Assembly: GCA_044376435.1 (NCBI GenBank)
Contig: JBILKX010000001.1
Span: 2,715-26,714, forward strand
Reading direction: 5' to 3'
Source: Alphaproteobacteria bacterium
Lineage (GTDB): Bacteria; Pseudomonadota; Alphaproteobacteria; JBILKX01
Length of the DNA: 24,000 nucleotides
In this document: one piece after another, positions 5,442 to 22,270 of the stretch
Layout: each line of letters opens with the position of its first letter
How positions within the stretch are numbered: position 1 is the stretch's first letter
Position numbers and translations under genes: made by a program
The notes under the pieces: generated by a model
Told to the model about the DNA's origin: nothing
Databases searched by the model: none
The model's input: only the letters and a program-made list of their open reading frames with translations

Positions 5442-6731
5442 ATGGCAGATGCAAAGCTAACACTTCCAAATGGGACGACTGTAGATCTCCCCATAATTGA
5501 GGGAACCGAAGGCCCAGTCGTGCTTGATACACGCAAGCTTTATGACCAGTCTGGCTGCTTCACCTATGATCCAGGGTTTATGGCAACGGCGAGTTGTTCA
5601 TCAGAAATTACTTTTATTGATGGCGAGAAGGGTATATTGCTGCATCGAGGCTATCCGATTGAAGAGCTTGCAACGCATAGCGATTTTATGGAAACCATGT
5701 ATCTCCTCCTTTATGGCGATTTGCCCAATATGGAGCAGAAGCGTAAGTTTGAGGGCGAGCTGGTGCATCATACCATGGTCCATGAACAGCTGACGCGATT
5801 CTATCAAGGCTTCCGCCGCGATGCTCATCCAATGGCTGTGATGGTGGGTGTGGTTGGGGCGCTTTCAGCGTTTTACCACGATAGCCTTAATATCCATGAT
5901 CCAGAACAGCGGGAGATAGCTTGCCTGCGTTTAGTCGCGAAAATGCCGACCATTGCGGCAATGGCGTATAAATATTCCGTTGGCCAGCCTTTTGTGTATC
6001 CTCGCAATGATCTCAAGTATGCTGAAAATTTTCTTTATATGATGTTCTCAGTGCCGTGTGAACCTTACAAGCTGCATCCAGTGTTAGCGCGGGCACTCGA
6101 TAAAATACTGATTTTACACGCGGACCATGAGCAAAATGCCTCAACCTCGACTGTAAGGTTAGCTGGCTCAAGTGGGGCAAATCCGTTTGCGTGCATTGCG
6201 GCTGGAATTGCGTGTTTATGGGGTCCTGCCCATGGTGGAGCAAATGAAGCCGTTTTAACCATGCTTAAGGAAATTGGATCTAAAGACCGAATTCCTGAAT
6301 TTATTCGGCGTGCCAAGGATAAAAATGATCCGTTTCGTCTCATGGGCTTTGGGCATCGAGTCTATAAAAACTATGACCCGCGCGCCAATGTGATGCGTCA
6401 AACCTGCCATGAAGTCTTAGAGGAATTGGGGTTGCGTAATGATCCATTGCTGGAAATTGCGATGGAGCTTGAAAAGATAGCGCTGGAAGATCCTTACTTC
6501 ATTGAGAAAAAATTATATCCAAATGTTGACTTTTATTCAGGAATTATTTTAAAAACAATGCAAATCCCGACGTCAATGTTTACAGTATTGTTTGCTATGG
6601 CAAGGACGGTCGGATGGGTGGCGCAATGGAAAGAAATGATTGCTGATCCGGCACAGAAGATTGGGCGGCCTCGCCAATTGTATGTTGGGCAGCATCGTAG
6701 AGAGTATGTGCCATTACACAAACGTACATAG
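5442..6731 (+). CDS. gltA: Citrate synthase (type II)
   Basis: 429 aa. Motifs [17 protein letters not shown] and [14 protein letters not shown], with the catalytic His/His/Asp context. Confidence 0.95.
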
Positions 6732-7026: not shown

Positions 7027-7054
7027 TTGAAAAATTTTTTCTAAGGACTATATT
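7027..7054 (+). promoter_or_regulatory. Sigma70-like promoter candidate for the 7079 gene
   Basis: TTGAAA (7027-7032), 16-nt spacer, TATATT (7049-7054), about 25 nt upstream of the ATG. GAGG RBS at 7066-7069. Confidence 0.35.
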
Positions 7055-7078
7055 AAGATTTTATTCGAGGTCTTAATT

Positions 7079-8197
7079 ATGCGTTCAATTTTATCTGCTG
7101 CCGTATGTGTTAGTTTGTTGTTAAATCCTCTCGGGGGAGCTTGGGCATACAGTCCCAATCGTGCAACTCTCGAAGATCAGCATGCATCAAAGAAGTTAGG
7201 CAACACCCAACAAGCAGCTCAAGAGGCTGTAGAGCCCGCAGCTGATCACCCTAAAGCTAAGTCTAAGAGAGCAGCATGGATTGTTATTGGCACTATGACT
7301 GGCGTCGCTGCGATCCTTAGTATTATCATCTGGGGGGCTTTTCGCAATTCGGCGACAACTGATAAGTCAACTGGTTTGGATCAAAATGACAATCATTTTA
7401 ACGATCCCAAAACAATAAAAAACTTTGTTAAGAGTTTTACGAATCCTCCTGGGGGAAGAGGTTCTTCGACCTTTGACTCAGGTGCGTTAGGGAAGGATGA
7501 CTCAACGAAGAGAAGTCTCAATCAGCCTTTGCAATATTTGGACTTAGAAGGCTATTCACCTCAAAAGCAGCAGCAAGATTCCAGAAAAGCCAAAGAGTAC
7601 GAAGACAGAGGCAAGGTGTCTGTTGATAGCACATTTCACCCAAAAAAGGTTGCTGAGAAACTAGAGATAACGCAACCTGTTACTCCTGCAACGAATCCCA
7701 ACCCTGCCACAGTGAGCGCAACGCCCATCAGTGATGAATTTCCTTTTTTTGGAAATGAGATTTTTGTCGCATCAACAGCAGAAATCCGGGCAAATGCCAT
7801 GAAGGCTGAAAAAATGCAACACATGTCGCTTTATTATTCAGCTTTGGGAATGAGTCCAGCTAAGGCTCTTGATGAAAAAGCTCGTGTGAGTAAGAATTTA
7901 GAGCGTTCTGGCTCAGGTGCGTTAGGGGAGGATGACTCAACGAAGAGGAGTCTCAATCAGTCTTTGCGATATTTTGACTTAGAAGGGAGAAGCGATTTCA
8001 GTCAACACCAGCAGCAAGATTCCAGAAAAGCCAAAGAGTGCGAAGACAGAGGCAAGGTGTTTGCTGATAGCACATTTGTTCGACAGAAGGTTGCTGAGCA
8101 GCAGGTAGAGAAGTCTGGTGTTGCTGCAGAAACGAACACTAATAATATGGATCCTTATAAACTCCCGACCGATAACCAAAGTTGTGTAATTGCTTGA
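7079..8197 (+). CDS. Orphan repeat-containing protein with N-terminal signal-like segment, a second hydrophobic helix and a C-terminal CaaX box (CVIA)
   Basis: 372-aa ORF with RBS and promoter candidate. N-terminus MRSILSAAVCVSLLLNPLGGAWA; hydrophobic helix AAWIVIGTMTGVAAILSIIIWGAF. Contains two ~60-aa paralogous modules. The last four residues are C-V-I-A before the stop. No family recognised. Confidence 0.7.
   Translation: MRSILSAAVCVSLLLNPLGGAWAYSPNRATLEDQHASKKLGNTQQAAQEAVEPAADHPKAKSKRAAWIVIGTMTGVAAILSIIIWGAFRNSATTDKSTGLDQNDNHFNDPKTIKNFVKSFTNPPGGRGSSTFDSGALGKDDSTKRSLNQPLQYLDLEGYSPQKQQQDSRKAKEYEDRGKVSVDSTFHPKKVAEKLEITQPVTPATNPNPATVSATPISDEFPFFGNEIFVASTAEIRANAMKAEKMQHMSLYYSALGMSPAKALDEKARVSKNLERSGSGALGEDDSTKRSLNQSLRYFDLEGRSDFSQHQQQDSRKAKECEDRGKVFADSTFVRQKVAEQQVEKSGVAAETNTNNMDPYKLPTDNQSCVIA
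7477..7657 (+). repeat. Internal direct repeat copy 1 (in frame) of the 7079 gene
   Basis: ctcaggtgcgttaggg...aaggttgctgag encodes GALGKDDSTKRSLNQPLQYLDLEGYSPQKQQQDSRKAKEYEDRGKVSVDSTFHPKKVAE. It matches copy 2 at both DNA and protein level. Confidence 0.8.
7912..8098 (+). repeat. Internal direct repeat copy 2 (in frame) of the 7079 gene
   Basis: Encodes GALGEDDSTKRSLNQSLRYFDLEGRSDFSQHQQQDSRKAKECEDRGKVFADSTFVRQKVAE. It lies 435 bp downstream of copy 1 and carries a 6-nt insertion. Confidence 0.8.
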
Positions 8198-8301
8198 TAA
8201 ATCGTAGCTGACATATGCCAGAAATTAAGGTGTTTCTTGGGTTGACGGGCGTGCAGTTCGGACGGATTTAGGCGGGCGCAGAAGCGCGGTTAGAAGGGTA
8301 T

Positions 8302-8323
8302 CGAACACGCGTGTCGTTTTTTT
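8302..8323 (+). terminator. Rho-independent terminator candidate after the 7079 gene
   Basis: Imperfect hairpin cgaaca/cgcg/tgtcg (8302-8316) followed by seven T (8317-8323). The stem is weak (5 bp with one bulge). Confidence 0.35.
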
Positions 8324-8370
8324 CTTTGGAGTCGCGCCCTAAATGACAACCTAGAAATATGAAATTTAAA

Positions 8371-8418: not shown

Positions 8419-8494
8419 GCCGGTTTAGCTCAGCTGGTAGAGCAACTGATTTGTAATCAGTAGGTCGTTGGTTCGATTCCGACAACCGGCACCA
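8419..8494 (+). tRNA. tRNA-Thr (anticodon UGU), CCA encoded
   Basis: Cloverleaf folded by hand: acceptor GCCGGTT/AACCGGC, D arm GCTC/GAGC, anticodon arm ACTGA-TTTGTAA-TCAGT, T arm GTTGG-TTCGATT-CCGAC, discriminator A, CCA. Confidence 0.92.
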
Positions 8495-15421: not shown

Positions 15422-18400
15422 CTATAGAAACTCGCGTTTCTGAGCCTGATATTCGACTTGCTGACGTAGCATCTCTTCAAGCTGGGTTTTATGCTTCTTC
15501 AACTCTTTGTGGGCGAGGTCCTGGTACAACTGCAGGTATTCGGGCTTGGCATCGGCAAGGTCGCCGTTAAAGGGAATCCCCCTTTCGTCCCGAAGCTCAG
15601 GCTGTAAGGACAGATACCGCTTGCCGAGTTTTGTGTGCATTGCGTTATCAATATTACTGCTTAGGTCCATCTGGGCGAATATGAGAGGTAGAAGCCAGCC
15701 CAGTTTACCGGCTTCAGGATTCACTGCCCTATAGTCAGAGGTGCCCTGACCAGTCCCCAGAGATAGAATGTGGACGTTCTGCTCGTAAGGTAGAATATCC
15801 TCATGGCGACGTTTGATCGCCTCCAGCACCAGCTCGGCCGGATTGTTCTTCCAGATCCCGCCATCGAGGAACGTATACGGCTTCTCTGCCGGCTTCCAGT
15901 TCATAATCTCATGGTGGCTATAGGTTGGCCTTGTGCGCCTCAGATTGTAAATCTGGGCCGACGAGAAGTAGGTTGGCGCGGCTGACGTGGCCCGCCCGAC
16001 ATCGCGCATGAGAAAATCCCAATGCGCATGCCGCTGGGCATTCCAGCTATCAAAAATGAACGGCGTAAACGGCGAAGTTGACCCATCAACCGTGGTTACC
16101 AGCACATTGGTTAAGGTGTCGCTGAGATGGAGGTCTTGAAACGAGTGACTCAGCAGGGCTTCTAAACCATCAGCTGAGTACTTGTTCTCTAAGATTCCCA
16201 TTGTCTTAGGCGTAAAGATCTTATGACCATGCTCCGTAAACAGCTTGGTCAGCTCAGCTAAGTCCGCAATCTGGCGCGTGTGCCCATCGGCAGACGCTGT
16301 ACAACCTAACGCCAGAATCCCTCCAATGGAGGTGCCGCCGAGGTAATCAAAGAGCTCATGAATCTGGAAGGCCTTCTTGGTATAATCCTTAGAACGGGTT
16401 TCCAATGCCTCGAGTATCACAGCTGGAATCAGACCACGGATGCCCCCGCCACAAATCGAAAGACCATAATAGTGGTTGGGAGTGTCTTTAGGGAAAGCGT
16501 GACGCGTGTCTGAAACGTATCCCTCCGTGGGGTTCGCAAGCGGTTTCGTCCAAAATGGCGAACCCTCATCTAGAAAGGTGGTTTGGGATATGCGCTCTGG
16601 AATCGCTGTGATGGAAGATAGTTCGTTGCCGTGAGATACCTCTTGCTTGCCGTTATTCTCCGCTCTTTCCATACCTGGGCTTTCTTCCTTCAGGATGAGC
16701 AGGTTGTAGTGGGTTAAGCCATGGGTATGAAGCGCATAGACGGTATTCCCCGTGGCGCTTGGGTTAGCGGTATGGACACAGATCACCTCCTGGGAGCTGC
16801 CTGGCTTTTTCTGCCAGACGTGAGCCTTAGTATTGGTAAGCTTAGCCAACGCATCCAGGCTGGCAGTGCTTCCAGGGATGTAGCTCAGCCACCCGCCCTT
16901 GGCGAGATAGCCCAAGACAAACTCGGTGAAGATGTCGGGGTCGAGGCCGTAGGTGTTCAGGGTGCGCTCAATGTCATCACAGATTTTGATCGCTTTGAGT
17001 AGGGCAGCTTTCTCACTGGTGTAAAATGCATCGGCCATCGTGTCGAATAGCTTGAGCAGCGCTGCCGCCTCATGGAAAACCGAAGTCTTTAAGCTGGTAT
17101 TGATCTTGCGAAGCGTCTCATCCATGTCGCTCTGGGCTTTATGGTATTGCTGGGCGAGAGCCTGACCGCCGCTGTCTTTCAAGGTCGGTGGCAGCGTCCC
17201 TGTCACTAGTGCCGCCTTGATTTCTGACTGGATGAGTTGGCGAATCTCTTTGGCGATCTCCGGTTGGTTTTGCGACTCGAGAAGCTTTTCCACCGCGGTA
17301 TCGCGGTCTAGCCCGAGCACATTAAATCCGCAGCTCGCAGCATTATGGACCGTGTCGAACTCACTCATCTTGGCTTCTTCGAAGATGAGGGTGTGGCCTT
17401 GGGGAGAAAGCTTGCCTTTTAGCGGGAGAGACACAGTGGGGAGGCTAGCGGTAGACAGCGGGATCAAGAGAGGAGACACTGGCTTTTCAGCTTTGGGGGA
17501 CGCCATGGACGGTATCTGTGTCTGAAGGAGTTGCCTGCCAGAGCTTGCCTGTCGAGAGCGGTTTCTCTCAACAGCCTCGGAGATCTCATGCCTTAGTTTC
17601 TCGCCAATCTGATTATGACTTAAGTCTAGCCATGTCAGAGCGGAATTGGAGAGGAGAGCCTGGGCCATCGATGCTGCGCCGCTGTCGCCAATCTGATTCC
17701 CCACTAAGTTTAGGTCTGTCAGAGCGGAATTGGAGAGGAGCGCCTGGGCCATCGATGCCGCCCCCTGGTCGCCCATCTGATTACTCCCTAAGTTTAGCTG
17801 TCTCAGAGCGGAGTTTGTGAGCAGAGCCTGGGCCATCGATGCCGCCCCGCTGGCGCCAATCTGATTCTGCCCTAAGTCTAGGCGTGTCAGAGCGGCGTTT
17901 GTGAGCAGAGCTTGGGCGATCGATGCCGCCCCCTGGTCGCCAATCTCATTATGCCCTAAGTTTAGCTGTCTCAGAGCGGAGTTTGTGAGCAGAGCCTGGG
18001 CGATCGATGCCGCCCCCTTGGCGCCAATGTAATTACTCCCTAAGTTTAGCTGTCTCAGAGCGGAGTTTGTGAGCAGAGCCTGGGCGATCGATGCCGCCCC
18101 GCTGGCGCCCATCTGATTATCCTCTAAGTCTAGCTGTCTCAGAGCGGAATTTGTGAGCAGAGCCTGGGCCATCGATGCCGCTCCTTTATCACCAATCTGA
18201 TTAATAGATAAGTCTAGCTGTCTCAGAGCGGAATTTGTGAGCAGAGCCTGGGCCATCGATGCCGCCCCGCTGGCGCCAATCTGATTCCACGTTAAGTTTA
18301 GCTGTGTCAGAGCGGCGTTCCTTTGAAGAATATCGGCGAAGAATTGTGCTCCTTGATCATCAATCTGATTTTGCGCTAAGTTTAGCTCTGTTAGAGAGAC

Positions 18401-21400
18401 ATCTATGAGCTCCCGTCGGAGCTTGTCTTGAGTCATAGCGCTGAGTTTTTTAAACAGATTGAGATTGAATCTGGGATACTTTTCGAGCATTTCGCGTTCT
18501 TCAATCCGGTCACAGCCTTGAAGCTTCAGGTCTGTTAAGGTTGGCGCTTGCGCTATAAGCGTTGCGAGTTCAGTTTCTGGAAGATTTTTATCGCCTTGAA
18601 AGTCGGCAGACCTTAAGAGCGGACATTGAAGAGCTAATGTGCTTAATTTGGGACAGTGCGGGAGCGCCAACTTGCGCAGCCGAGGCGTATCGAGCCCAAG
18701 TCTTTCCAAGTTATCGCACGAGCTTATCGTTAAATGCGTGAGGTTTTTCATCCTTAAAGAAGTTGATTGGATCCAACTGGACAACCATGCACGGACATCG
18801 GGAGCGACATAGATTATCTCTGTAAGCCCTGGAAGGTCGTGCAAGCTTATCGAACTCAGTCCAGGCGATGTTTCAGATAACATCACAAAAATCTGCCCCG
18901 TTACCTCGGGACACTGACTTAACTGGAGGTGGGTCAGATTCGCCAGGGTAAACTTTTGCAGAATCATATTGGTTAAGGCGTGGGTATTGAGGCTTAGTGA
19001 ACGCCACTCATAGCGTTTGAGCTCCTCAAGCCACTGTTGTTGGCTGCTGAGGGGCAGCTTCCTCAAATCTAGGTTATGCGCTAAAAACTTCTCCCGCTGC
19101 GCTTGCATTGTGAGGGACTGAAAATCCTCTAAACTCTGGCCGAGGATTTCTTTGCGTAATTGCTCTTGAATCTTTTGTAATTCAATGAGGGCGGTGTGGG
19201 GACCGATGCCAACGCCGCGCTTTAGTTGGTCAAGGGTCATTTCGTTTGGCTCGACTTTCTGCGACCTCAAAACGGCCTGCGCTGTCGTTGAGGTTATGTA
19301 ACCGCCCTGAGCGTTGGTTTTATAGTCGCCGCCATCAACCCGCTTAAACCGTTCCGCGACGGAAATATTTTCGGCCAAGATCGCCTGATAGCGTTTGCCG
19401 AGTTCAGGCTCCAATTTCATCAAAAGATCTATAAAGGTTAAGTCTGGGTTGTTTTGGTTATCTTCTAAGATTTTTTGCAACCGGATAAGATCTGCATACA
19501 GCTGCTGAATCATGAGGGGGGTAAAAGGGACGCCAATAAAAGTGGGATTATGTTTTCGACTGAGAAAGACCTTTAGCTCGTCAGGCGTGAAGAGCCCCAT
19601 ATAGCTCTCATGAATTCCAGAGACTTTTTGCAGCCATTTGGTGGTTAACTCCCCCGGGTTGAGCGTGGTGCGAAAATGGTCCCTGACCTCTTGGGGGATT
19701 TTTTCTTTCATCTGATCTAGGCAAAAGAGCACCGACTTCACTCGCACCTTGAGCTTGGTGTTGCCGTCTTTGACTTCCGTTGCAAAGGTTGGGACAAAGC
19801 TGTGATCATTGTCGACACAGGTAATCGTATATCGCGTGGTCGTGGGGTGTGAATCGGGGACAAAGGGGGTGAGAATATAGTTATCTGGCTTGCCATCTTC
19901 TGGCCGAATTATCATCGTTGAGAGCAGGATTTTGCCGAGGCTGTTCAGGTCAAGCTGGGCGAGGGAGATCGGTTTCTTCTCAAGCACGTCTTGGAGATTA
20001 TCCCCTTTGATTCCCCCTGAGATCAAGACGGGATCTTCTCCCATACGCGTCAACTCAACGTAGGGGGCGCCATGGCCCGCGAGCAGACGCATCAGTTCTC
20101 CAGCGGCATACTCCATGCCAGGGAGTTCGGGATTAAGTTTGAAGTACAGCTCATAATCTCCATGAGTAGCTCTGCCAACAGGCGCGCGACCATAGGTTTT
20201 AAGGGCTTTAAACTCTCCTTTCGGACCTGTAAGTTGCTGGAACACGTCGGGGCGTAAAAAGCGGGTTTTCTGAGTCGCAGTTTTGATAGCGGTGCCGTTA
20301 CCCTTTGAGGGCAGTAGAGTCTCAAGAGCCATGCGCCAAGCAATTTCAGGGTTTCTGGATTCTAGAATTTTTAGGGCTGTAGCAAGGGGGGACTTTGCGC
20401 TAAGCTTGACGCTCTCTTGAAAATCTTGCAAGTGCCGCCAGTGGACGTGCTTGCCGGCTCCTTTATAAATGAGGTAGGAGACAATCTCAGAAGCTTTGAG
20501 CCTTAAGGCAAGATCAAGCGCGCTTTGCCTGTTGGAGTCTAGGGTCTCGATGATTCCAGGTTGCTCAAGGAGGACCTCTAGCCGTTGAATGACTTGCTGG
20601 GGGTCATCTTTATGCTGATTAATGATCTTGTGCAGCAGGGGCTGGTGGACTTTGTCAACCCAATGGGGATTGGCGCCAAGCTTGATCAGAAGTTTAAGCG
20701 CCGCCGCTGATAAGTCTTCGCGGACGATCTGCTGCAGTACTTCTGGCTGTCTCCAGCGATCTGGGATGAGCGTTAGGTGGGCGCGTTCAGCAAAACTGCG
20801 GGTGAGTTGCTCAACCAGGCCCGGTGTGGGGGAGAGGTTTGATAAGAGATTGTGGGTTAGCTCCCGGATGGTCTGGACGTTGTCCACTTTCTTAAGTTCA
20901 AGCTCACGCAGGAGCTTAAACAAGGGCTTTGCGGAGGGTCCTATCTTGTGACTAACATCGAGGAAGTCTTCAACTGGCTTGGGGACAGTCCACGTTTTTC
21001 CGTCCATAGCGGCATAGAGATGTGCGAATCCCTTGAGCGGATCTGGGTAGAGCTTCTTGAGTTTTTGATAGTACGCGAACGTGATTGGCTGGATGGTTTG
21101 GAGTAGCTGAGTGTGAGTAAACTCCGGATGGTCTTTGAGCGTAGCCTGGACCAAATGTATTTTGCTGAGAAGCTCTGTCGTTGTGCCGCTCTTCAGTTTT
21201 AAGGGAATCCTCAGGTCGTCGGAGAGGTCCTTTGATAACTTTAAGGTGCCATAGCGTTCATTTTTAGCGTCAAGCAACCCGAGCCATTGTAATACGATGG
21301 ACTCAGGGGCTTGTGCGATAAAGTTTTTATAAATTTCTTTCTCAACAACATGATTCATCAAGGGTAAAAAATAAAGTATGTTCCTAACGTTCATGTTGTG

Positions 21401-22270
21401 CTGGCTTGTGTGCGCCCCAGAAGTGATCGGGCCGAGCTCAGGGACTAAAGCTTCGTCATTATCGATGCCGATGATAAACGCCTTCTGCTTTTGGAAGTAG
21501 ACACGGAAGTTATCACCTTTTGCATCAGCTGGGTTGGTGAGAAGGCTGCTGAGAAACAGAGCGCTAAAGTTGGCTTTATCTACCTGATCATAGCTATACT
21601 TTTTCTGACCCACACCTTGGATGAAGTCTTGCAGGCTGATGCCCTCAACCGTGCGGGAGGCTTGGAGGACGTAAGAGTGAGGGACAGGGGTGAGATAATC
21701 CTGCGCAAAGGTGGGATTTTTTTCTAGAAAAGTATCAAGAGTCTTGGTGGCGAGAGCAAGGCAATACTCGGCGTTGGTAGGGGTGTCAGGCTTAGGCTGG
21801 AGGATAGTCACGTTCTGCAAAGAGACCAGAGCCGACGGCGTTGCCCCCTGACCAACGAGTAACTTTGTGATGCAGTACATGGCTGATTCCATGCCCGGTG
21901 TTAACGGCGGCATGCCATTTGCTTTGAAGTGTACACCGTCTTTAGCAACGACTGCGTGATTACCGTCTTGGTTTATTTTTAGAAGGCAGCCATACTTATC
22001 TTTTGAGATCAGGCGTAAGGCCATTTCCTGAGAGATTGCGTAAGCCTGGTCCAAGATATCGCTGTGCATGATGACCGCATATTGTGGAGTCTGTGGCCCA
22101 ACCGGCTGAGCATTTGTGGCGTGGATCATCAAGCGGCTGAGATCTTTGATATCCTGCTCGATGATGCTCGGGGGCCACAGCCTGGTATCGCTGAGCTCCA
22201 TTGCCCAGGTGGTCTGAAGGACCAGAGAATAACATAAGGTAAGGCTCAGTATGCGTTTGAAGATTCGCAT
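15422..22270 (-). CDS. Giant (2,282 aa) secreted multidomain eukaryote-like protein: signal peptide, kinase-like 1, ANK, kinase-like 2, FBXL-type LRR, RNI-type LRR, OTU-like protease, patatin phospholipase
   Basis: A single uninterrupted ORF. AAGGAG RBS lies 7 nt upstream of the ATG (22268-22270). Domain motifs were read directly from the translation; see the sub-features. Confidence 0.92.
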   Translation of the reverse strand: MRIFKRILSLTLCYSLVLQTTWAMELSDTRLWPPSIIEQDIKDLSRLMIHATNAQPVGPQTPQYAVIMHSDILDQAYAISQEMALRLISKDKYGCLLKINQDGNHAVVAKDGVHFKANGMPPLTPGMESAMYCITKLLVGQGATPSALVSLQNVTILQPKPDTPTNAEYCLALATKTLDTFLEKNPTFAQDYLTPVPHSYVLQASRTVEGISLQDFIQGVGQKKYSYDQVDKANFSALFLSSLLTNPADAKGDNFRVYFQKQKAFIIGIDNDEALVPELGPITSGAHTSQHNMNVRNILYFLPLMNHVVEKEIYKNFIAQAPESIVLQWLGLLDAKNERYGTLKLSKDLSDDLRIPLKLKSGTTTELLSKIHLVQATLKDHPEFTHTQLLQTIQPITFAYYQKLKKLYPDPLKGFAHLYAAMDGKTWTVPKPVEDFLDVSHKIGPSAKPLFKLLRELELKKVDNVQTIRELTHNLLSNLSPTPGLVEQLTRSFAERAHLTLIPDRWRQPEVLQQIVREDLSAAALKLLIKLGANPHWVDKVHQPLLHKIINQHKDDPQQVIQRLEVLLEQPGIIETLDSNRQSALDLALRLKASEIVSYLIYKGAGKHVHWRHLQDFQESVKLSAKSPLATALKILESRNPEIAWRMALETLLPSKGNGTAIKTATQKTRFLRPDVFQQLTGPKGEFKALKTYGRAPVGRATHGDYELYFKLNPELPGMEYAAGELMRLLAGHGAPYVELTRMGEDPVLISGGIKGDNLQDVLEKKPISLAQLDLNSLGKILLSTMIIRPEDGKPDNYILTPFVPDSHPTTTRYTITCVDNDHSFVPTFATEVKDGNTKLKVRVKSVLFCLDQMKEKIPQEVRDHFRTTLNPGELTTKWLQKVSGIHESYMGLFTPDELKVFLSRKHNPTFIGVPFTPLMIQQLYADLIRLQKILEDNQNNPDLTFIDLLMKLEPELGKRYQAILAENISVAERFKRVDGGDYKTNAQGGYITSTTAQAVLRSQKVEPNEMTLDQLKRGVGIGPHTALIELQKIQEQLRKEILGQSLEDFQSLTMQAQREKFLAHNLDLRKLPLSSQQQWLEELKRYEWRSLSLNTHALTNMILQKFTLANLTHLQLSQCPEVTGQIFVMLSETSPGLSSISLHDLPGLTEIIYVAPDVRAWLSSWIQSTSLRMKNLTHLTISSCDNLERLGLDTPRLRKLALPHCPKLSTLALQCPLLRSADFQGDKNLPETELATLIAQAPTLTDLKLQGCDRIEEREMLEKYPRFNLNLFKKLSAMTQDKLRRELIDVSLTELNLAQNQIDDQGAQFFADILQRNAALTQLNLTWNQIGASGAASMAQALLTNSALRQLDLSINQIGDKGAASMAQALLTNSALRQLDLEDNQMGASGAASIAQALLTNSALRQLNLGSNYIGAKGAASIAQALLTNSALRQLNLGHNEIGDQGAASIAQALLTNAALTRLDLGQNQIGASGAASMAQALLTNSALRQLNLGSNQMGDQGAASMAQALLSNSALTDLNLVGNQIGDSGAASMAQALLSNSALTWLDLSHNQIGEKLRHEISEAVERNRSRQASSGRQLLQTQIPSMASPKAEKPVSPLLIPLSTASLPTVSLPLKGKLSPQGHTLIFEEAKMSEFDTVHNAASCGFNVLGLDRDTAVEKLLESQNQPEIAKEIRQLIQSEIKAALVTGTLPPTLKDSGGQALAQQYHKAQSDMDETLRKINTSLKTSVFHEAAALLKLFDTMADAFYTSEKAALLKAIKICDDIERTLNTYGLDPDIFTEFVLGYLAKGGWLSYIPGSTASLDALAKLTNTKAHVWQKKPGSSQEVICVHTANPSATGNTVYALHTHGLTHYNLLILKEESPGMERAENNGKQEVSHGNELSSITAIPERISQTTFLDEGSPFWTKPLANPTEGYVSDTRHAFPKDTPNHYYGLSICGGGIRGLIPAVILEALETRSKDYTKKAFQIHELFDYLGGTSIGGILALGCTASADGHTRQIADLAELTKLFTEHGHKIFTPKTMGILENKYSADGLEALLSHSFQDLHLSDTLTNVLVTTVDGSTSPFTPFIFDSWNAQRHAHWDFLMRDVGRATSAAPTYFSSAQIYNLRRTRPTYSHHEIMNWKPAEKPYTFLDGGIWKNNPAELVLEAIKRRHEDILPYEQNVHILSLGTGQGTSDYRAVNPEAGKLGWLLPLIFAQMDLSSNIDNAMHTKLGKRYLSLQPELRDERGIPFNGDLADAKPEYLQLYQDLAHKELKKHKTQLEEMLRQQVEYQAQKREFL
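15671..16474 (-). other. Patatin-like phospholipase domain (aa ~1933-2200)
   Basis: Oxyanion GGGIRG (16433-16450, verified at nucleotide level), nucleophile elbow G-T-S(1981)-I-G, catalytic Asp in FLD(2136)GG, and the conserved ATSAAPTYF block. Confidence 0.88.
16691..17368 (-). other. OTU-like cysteine protease (putative deubiquitinase) module, aa ~1635-1860
   Basis: Cys box FDTVHNAASC(1647)GFNVLG. A long helical insertion follows, then the His box NTVYALHTHGLTH(1854)YNLLI, which resembles the OTU C-terminal motif (VYLLY...GHYD.L). The Asp of the usual D-G-N-C box is not obvious. Confidence 0.4.
17603..18394 (-). repeat. Tandem 84-bp repeat array encoding about nine 28-aa RNI/NLR-type leucine-rich repeats (aa 1293-1556)
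   Basis: Unit consensus: LRQLNLGSNQIGDQGAASMAQALLTNSA. The eight core units (17639-18310) are near-identical at DNA level (recurring gtctcagagcgga(g/a)tttgtgagcagagcctgggc(c/g)atcgatgccgcc). They are flanked by a degenerate first unit and a capping half-unit. Confidence 0.9.
18506..18988 (-). other. Cysteine-containing LRRs (FBXL/AMN1 type), aa ~1095-1255
   Basis: Repeated L..L.L..C..(L/I)T pattern: NLTHLQLSQCPEVTG, LSSISLHDLPGLT, NLTHLTISSCDNLERL, LRKLALPHCPKLSTL, LTDLKLQGCDRI. Confidence 0.6.
19781..20203 (-). other. Atypical kinase-like module 2 (aa ~690-830)
   Basis: ELYFK(711)LNPELPGMEYAAGELMRLLAG; PVLISGGIKGDNLQDVL; EDGKPD(796)N(797)YIL; TCVD(820)ND(822)HSF. It aligns colinearly with module 1. 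Confidence 0.45.
20453..20758 (-). other. Ankyrin-repeat-like region (aa ~505-606)
   Basis: AAALKLLIKLGANPHWVDKVHQPLLHKII... and ...NRQSALDLALRLKASEIVSYLIYKGAG fit the ANK helix-turn-helix consensus (L..GA(N/D)....G.T.LH.A). Confidence 0.55.
21371..22003 (-). other. Atypical kinase-like module 1 (aa ~90-300)
   Basis: VHFK(116)ANG..PLTPGMESA...LL.G; hinge-like ..QASRTVEGISLQDFI; DAKGD(253)N(254)FRV; IGID(270)ND(272)EAL. This matches the Lys / Glu / D-x-x-x-x-N / DxD pattern of protein-kinase-like or PI3/4-kinase-like folds. It is paralogous to module 2. Confidence 0.45.
22202..22270 (-). other. Sec-type signal peptide of the giant protein (aa 1-23)
   Basis: MRIFKRILSLTLCYSLVLQTTWA|MEL: basic n-region, hydrophobic core and a small-x-small (T-W-A) cleavage context. 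Confidence 0.65.

Follow-up and report, generated by a model that had tools for sequence, protein, structure and literature searches.

A canonical CaaX box on an orphan alphaproteobacterial protein with a predicted membrane anchor: coincidence or candidate host-directed signal

Within the 24,000-nucleotide stretch of alphaproteobacterial DNA analyzed here (the window), an orphan gene on the forward strand (7079-8197) encodes a protein of 372 amino acids, P0001, that ends in a CaaX box and that on paper would make an excellent substrate for eukaryotic farnesyltransferase. The sequence-only reading of this DNA had put P0001 forward as a translocated effector that is prenylated by the host. Our analysis neither supports nor refutes that claim, and P0001 is best regarded as a candidate. 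The explanation we consider somewhat better than an even bet is that P0001 is a lineage-specific, membrane-anchored envelope protein whose CaaX end is coincidental, and we put the likelihood that the box is used at about one chance in three. The evidence for these positions comes from the C-terminus itself, from a leader and membrane helix that P0001 has in common with six other proteins of the same genome, and from a comparison of the number of CaaX ends in that genome with the number expected by chance.

The gene and its C-terminal CVIA box

P0001 is encoded by the sole long open reading frame (1119 nt) between the genes for citrate synthase (5442-6731) and tRNA-Thr (8419-8494), and the signals surrounding the frame, all on the forward strand, are those of an ordinary bacterial gene. 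A Shine-Dalgarno-like GAGG (7067-7070) lies 8 nt 5′ of the ATG, and a promoter-like site (7027-7054) composed of TTGAAA, a 16 nt spacer and TATATT, which agrees with consensus at 10 of 12 positions by pattern match alone, lies 25 nt 5′ of the start codon. The TGA stop codon is followed directly by an in-frame TAA (8198-8200), giving tandem stops at 8195-8200. Folding of nucleotides 8198-8345 with ViennaRNA (−40.6 kcal/mol) revealed a long hairpin some 50-115 nt past the stop codon, missed by a simple terminator scan, that together with the seven T residues following it (8307-8313) is likely to be an intrinsic terminator at approximately 8244-8313. The long housekeeping reading frames of the window are intact under translation table 11, and TGA is therefore read as a stop here. 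No overlapping reading frame of 80 or more amino acids is present on either strand at the P0001 gene, an Rfam search of its surroundings matched only the neighboring tRNA-Thr, and no further copies of its flanks occur elsewhere in the genome.

An independent copy of the gene comes from a JGI metagenome contig (locus L027), on which P0002, the one further member of the 90% identity cluster of P0001, is encoded in the same frame with the same end. P0002 is identical to P0001 at 370 of 372 residues and retains CVIA. The two loci differ at 2 of 2107 bases; both differences, at window positions 7887 and 7891 in comparison with L027, are T-to-G changes, and they alter the neighboring codons 270 and 271 from Val-Ser to Gly-Arg. 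Real variation or sequencing error may account for them. Because the copy is so nearly identical, it is uninformative as to selection on the CaaX box. Taken together, the GAGG, the promoter-like site, the hairpin, the absence of overlapping frames and the independent metagenome copy make P0001 look like a real gene.

The terminal codons were reported in the sequence-only reading as TGT GTA ATT GCT TGA at 8183-8197, encoding a textbook CaaX motif with a cysteine numbered 369, and each of these particulars proved accurate. The box, Cys369-Val-Ile-Ala372 (8183-8194), followed by the stop codon, has the Cys-aliphatic-aliphatic-X form seen in host-prenylated effectors and is the canonical box of yeast a-factor (PMC10320760), with the alanine at X that is typical of farnesyltransferase substrates. 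A Ras-based screen that covered all CXXX sequences also placed CVIA among its best-ranked hits (PMC10320760). Recognition is described by the PrePS rule as depending in addition on the ~11 residues preceding the prenylated cysteine, which should form a hydrophilic linker that is small or flexible (PMC1175975). In P0001 these positions, −11 to −1 relative to Cys369, are occupied by residues 358-368 (DPYKLPTDNQS; 8150-8182), which have a GRAVY score of −1.83, place a serine at −1, and are modeled by AlphaFold as coil with pLDDT values of ~41-44, in qualitative agreement with the rule (PMC1175975).

Protein architecture and a family of paralogs

The remainder of the protein is built in a manner that the sequence-only reading, which overlooked both a Sec-type leader and a strong membrane helix, did not describe. 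Hydropathy and alignment with paralogs indicate a leader at residues 1-23 (7079-7147) consisting of MR, a hydrophobic core and NPLGGAWA before a tyrosine; the leader would presumably be cleaved. A profile of the leader proved specific to the paralog family described below. A membrane helix is predicted at residues 66-88 (7274-7342), where the Kyte-Doolittle mean reaches 2.24 over 19 residues. A lipoprotein reading of the conserved cysteine in the leader was considered and set aside, as judged by eye the residues before it form no lipobox. The single-sequence AlphaFold model of P0001 (mean pLDDT 49, pTM 0.21) is of too low a quality to support a search by fold, and exceeds a pLDDT of 70 only at the helix, residues 66-88.

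The 284-residue tail that follows is hydrophilic (GRAVY −0.96), with 58% of its residues charged or polar, and it contains a direct repeat of ~62 amino acids. Copy 1 (7474-7657) and copy 2 (7909-8098) have 89-92% DNA identity, after which the similarity fades; the last 30 residues of P0001 lie outside the repeat and have no counterpart upstream. Acquisition of the CaaX box through a stop codon gained inside copy 2 was considered and is unsupported, the DNA similarity ending about 90 nt before the stop. The mature protein contains two cysteines only, at positions 321 and 369. The first of these stands where copy 1 of the repeat has a tyrosine, and so appears to be recent and is not conserved. 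Both copies contain a Tyr-x-Asp-Leu sequence (YLDL at 7535-7546 and YFDL at 7970-7981, forward strand) in agreement with the Tyr-x-x-hydrophobic pattern of eukaryotic sorting signals; this correspondence in sequence may be coincidence.

The topology suggested by these features is not straightforward. From a cleavable leader followed by a strong helix that stops transfer, one would expect an inner-membrane protein whose tail lies in the bacterial cytoplasm. Throughout the seven proteins of the family, lysine and arginine are more abundant on the N-terminal side of the helix (2-5 residues) than on the C-terminal side (1-4 residues; window 7229-7387 in P0001), and by the positive-inside rule this distribution would place the tail outside the cytoplasm. 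The charge bias conflicts with the leader-plus-stop-transfer topology. Leader cleavage and topology are both derived from hydropathy and alignment, and the tail may lie on either side of the membrane.

P0001 had been said to have no recognizable family, and with respect to known families this is correct: it has no Pfam or NCBIfam match, neither a word-indexed search against 5.8 billion proteins nor an exhaustive HMMER comparison with 1.84 billion representative proteins retrieved anything but P0001 itself, and six-frame searches of 41 and of 401 genomes of the class found no orthologue, only paralogs within the source genome. These paralogs, which went unseen in the sequence-only reading, are six other reading frames that have in common with P0001 roughly the first 100 residues, comprising the leader and the helix with a stalk of ~45 residues between them, and whose tails are unrelated (C39:10887, reverse; C5:391, forward; C82:32122, forward; C82:33263, forward; C73:12369, reverse; C36:3142, forward; loci L005, L007, L010, L030, L009 and L026). 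The consensus of the module, to which P0001 conforms, is MR, a hydrophobic core, NPL-x-G-x-x-WA, ~45 residues and the membrane helix, ~100 residues in all. A profile of the module scores six members at 124-159 bits and a seventh at 28 bits, and the leader and helix common to P0001 and the six other frames match it with E values of ~1e-36 to 1e-47.

On the sequence evidence, P0001 is a member of a seven-paralog family specific to its source genome. The family members, the CaaX protein included, range from 246 to 762 amino acids, with two encoded in tandem on contig C82. The module profile found nothing outside the source genome in the collection of 5.8 billion proteins and no credible match among 400 other genomes of the class, where the sole other hit (G319, E = 0.008) contains an internal stop. 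None of the six paralogs has a CaaX end and none matches a Pfam family. For conservation of the box, proposed earlier as a check, the only sequences to compare are the near-identical P0002, which keeps CVIA but is too close to be informative, and the six paralogs, which lack it but have tails unrelated to that of P0001.

Host association, export routes and the number of CaaX ends

The source genome (1.5 Mb in 86 contigs, 46% GC, estimated 100% complete) has no close relatives among the reference genomes compared; the 40 nearest all share only its class, and its order or family is apparently represented there by this genome alone. ATP/ADP translocases are markers of energy parasites of eukaryotic cells, and a gene for such a protein is present (C68:14560-16038, forward strand, locus L017), matching the Pfam TLC model with 692 bits where none of 14 control genomes gave a match. 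A second, weaker TLC match is found at C52:17335-18306. The giant eukaryote-like protein previously described in the same window is indeed encoded there (15422-22270, reverse strand, 2282 amino acids), with LRR and patatin domains and an ankyrin match that is weak and below the Pfam cut-off. On the basis of the translocase and the giant protein, life inside a eukaryote is likely, the host probably being a protist. The giant protein starts with a generic Sec-type leader (22190-22270, reverse strand; MR, a hydrophobic core and TWA before Met-Glu), which on sequence grounds suggests, and makes plausible, an export pathway for the host-directed proteins of this bacterium in which Sec is the first step. 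A special leader common to the giant protein and the P0001 family was considered and rejected, as the family leader profile does not match the giant protein.

No recognizable type III, IV or VI injection machine, of the kind that accompanies host-prenylated effectors, was detected. VirB4, VirD4 and TssC were not found in the genome with the models searched, a set in which DotO/IcmB had no model of its own, and the genome yielded no secretin of the injectisome type. The two secretins and two T2SE-type ATPases that are present belong to two separate clusters. One encodes a GspF/PilC-like protein, a PilB/GspE-like ATPase and an MshL-like secretin with orphan reading frames interleaved (C62:8039-14275, reverse strand, locus L016), and represents a type II secretion system or a type IV pilus, with all scores below the curated cut-offs. 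The other is a Tad-type pilus set with an ATPase, a TadB-like protein and a CpaC-like secretin. Besides the L016 region, genes of these sets lie at C43:235-2618 and C37:6966-8345, and two TolC-type proteins are encoded in the genome.

The earlier reading had stated also that bacteria lack CaaX prenyltransferases. For this genome the statement holds in part: the alpha-subunit repeat was not found, but the search for the beta subunit was uninformative, as it matched no control genome.

The significance of a single CaaX end depends on how many are expected. A strict pattern, C-[AVILM]-[AVILM]-[ASMQC], with or without L and F at X, was applied to the 1308 predicted genes, for which estimates from amino-acid composition and from how often the pattern occurs internally agree on an expectation of 0.4-0.7 such C-termini per genome. 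Two were observed, of which P0001 is the one credible case. The second, CLMC, ends a 95-amino-acid reading frame (C62:10952-11239, forward strand) that lies antisense to the PilB/GspE-like (pilus/secretion) ATPase gene and is probably not a gene. With one credible case against 0.4-0.7 expected, there is no excess over chance of the kind that accompanies host-prenylated effectors, and one canonical CaaX end would arise by chance in roughly a third to half of such genomes. The protein that bears the box in this genome is an orphan whose tail is disordered and contains a repeat, and not a housekeeping protein; in our judgement, made after the fact, this placement raises the odds of function several-fold.

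Competing explanations and comparison with known systems

The explanation that best accounts for these observations, held with slightly more confidence than doubt, is that P0001 is an envelope protein of a single lineage. The leader-helix module common to the family would most likely target its members to the Sec machinery and anchor them in the bacterial inner membrane, and the largely disordered 284-residue tail, with its recent internal duplication, may provide the envelope with a variable surface for interactions. The terminal CVIA would then be coincidental, a perfect substrate on paper carried by a tail that would encounter no prenyltransferase, since it would remain with the bacterium, in whose genome the alpha-subunit repeat was not found. 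We counted in favor of coincidence the near-chance number of CaaX ends, the leader and helix, the paralogs without the motif and the failure to find VirB4, VirD4 or TssC, as well as the consideration that a membrane helix would make a lipid anchor redundant. Against it were counted the top-grade CVIA with its compliant linker, the ATP/ADP translocase in a reduced genome, the occurrence of the box on an effector-like orphan, the Sec-type leader of the giant neighbor, by which Sec-exported proteins may reach the host, and the lysine and arginine bias at the helix, which misfits a simple topology with the tail in the cytoplasm.

The principal alternative, to which we give roughly a third of the weight, is that the box is used. 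P0001 would leave the bacterium or face the host cytosol, and a protist farnesyltransferase would lipidate Cys369, pinning the tail to a host membrane or to the membrane that contains the symbiont. Since there is no recognizable injection system, export would have to begin with Sec and continue by way of a type II or type IV pilus-like system, TolC-dependent export, vesicles or some other route. The canonical box and compliant linker are in keeping with this alternative, as are the markers of intracellular life and the orphan status, disorder and recent duplication that are typical of host-interaction proteins; the only credible CaaX end of the genome sits on just such a protein. There are also precedents for individual steps: AnkB and the seven Pel effectors depend on the CaaX cysteine for their vacuolar localization (PMC2916131, PMC13081727), substrates of the Legionella type II system arrive in the host cytosol (PMC5478897), and membrane-helix effectors may pass through an inner-membrane intermediate (PMC11602083). 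This last route, however, requires a type IVB machine (PMC11602083), which the searches of this genome did not find, and delivery of the known prenylated effectors is by Dot/Icm (PMC13081727) or type III systems. Use of the box is further disfavored by a CaaX count no higher than chance, by the paralogs that lack the motif, by the prediction from leader and helix that the protein is retained in the inner membrane, and by the lack of orthologues in the databases searched, where the sole other copy is near-identical.

In weighing these two explanations we began from a modest prior for the use of host prenylation and gave the CaaX count no weight, because one case is expected either way. The odds were raised several-fold on account of the effector-like character of the orphan and the high grade of its motif and linker, and lowered two- to three-fold for the leader and helix and the missing injection machinery.

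It is improbable, to a degree well below either of the foregoing, that the terminal cysteine has a role within the bacterium that is unrelated to prenylation, such as a disulfide, a metal site or a thiol-linked contact in the envelope. Such a role would fit a mature protein whose only cysteines are Cys321 and Cys369, and the charge distribution at the helix permits a tail outside the cytoplasm where it could operate; Cys321, on the other hand, is recent and not conserved, and the family offers no evidence for it. A CaaX-like form is not known from any bacterial sorting or modification signal. Finally, that the frame is not a gene, or that its true end lies elsewhere through assembly error or another genetic code, would account for the lack of homologues, but this very improbable reading is close to refuted by the length of the frame, its upstream sites, hairpin and tandem stops, the module it has in common with six other frames and the metagenome contig with the same frame and end.

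The consequences of the two leading explanations differ. We consider less likely than not the specific picture of a Sec-exported, helix-anchored P0001 that is farnesylated by its protist host and bridges the bacterial envelope, or the membrane surrounding the bacterium, and host membranes. Were it true, P0001 would be attached through its own helix at one end and through a lipid made by the host at the other. Mimicry of host prenylation substrates is established mainly for Legionella and Salmonella, and it would then extend to a deep-branching lineage of the Alphaproteobacteria, with delivery that is independent of injection systems. Cys369 and farnesyltransferase inhibitors would also become a handle for tracing the proteins of an uncultured bacterium in its host. 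If instead the box is a coincidence, P0001 is a useful calibration case: because chance alone produces one such end in about a third to a half of genomes of 1300 genes, a lone CaaX end that is not backed by conservation is no ground for calling a protein an effector.

Comparison with systems that have been studied directly helps to place the protein. The nearest parallel is with AnkB and the Pel effectors of Legionella pneumophila, which likewise come from a protist-associated bacterium and have a flexible tail that leads to a canonical CaaX box at the very end. Dot/Icm delivers those effectors, which number 7-11 per strain and have a motif described as highly conserved, whereas P0001 is a single case with no orthologues, has a Sec-type leader and a membrane helix, comes from a genome in which type III, IV and VI systems were not found, and is known from sequence alone. 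The a-factor precursor of Saccharomyces cerevisiae has the identical tetrapeptide, the reference for a farnesylated and processed box (PMC10320760; PMC2148179), but the last four residues are all that it has in common with P0001, and the proteins are otherwise unrelated. The membrane-helix effectors of Legionella (PMC11602083, PMC6110835) provide a likeness in the hydrophobic helix and a precedent for insertion into the inner membrane, but they are extracted by a type IVB machine, and no such machine was found in the source genome. Chlamydial Inc proteins combine a bilobed hydrophobic domain, two helices joined by a short loop, with type III secretion. P0001 does not conform to this type: its two hydrophobic stretches are ~45 residues apart, the first resembles a cleavable leader, and no injectisome-type secretin was found in the genome. 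For these reasons P0001 is not filed among host-prenylated effectors; it is a candidate that would act like one if it reached the host.
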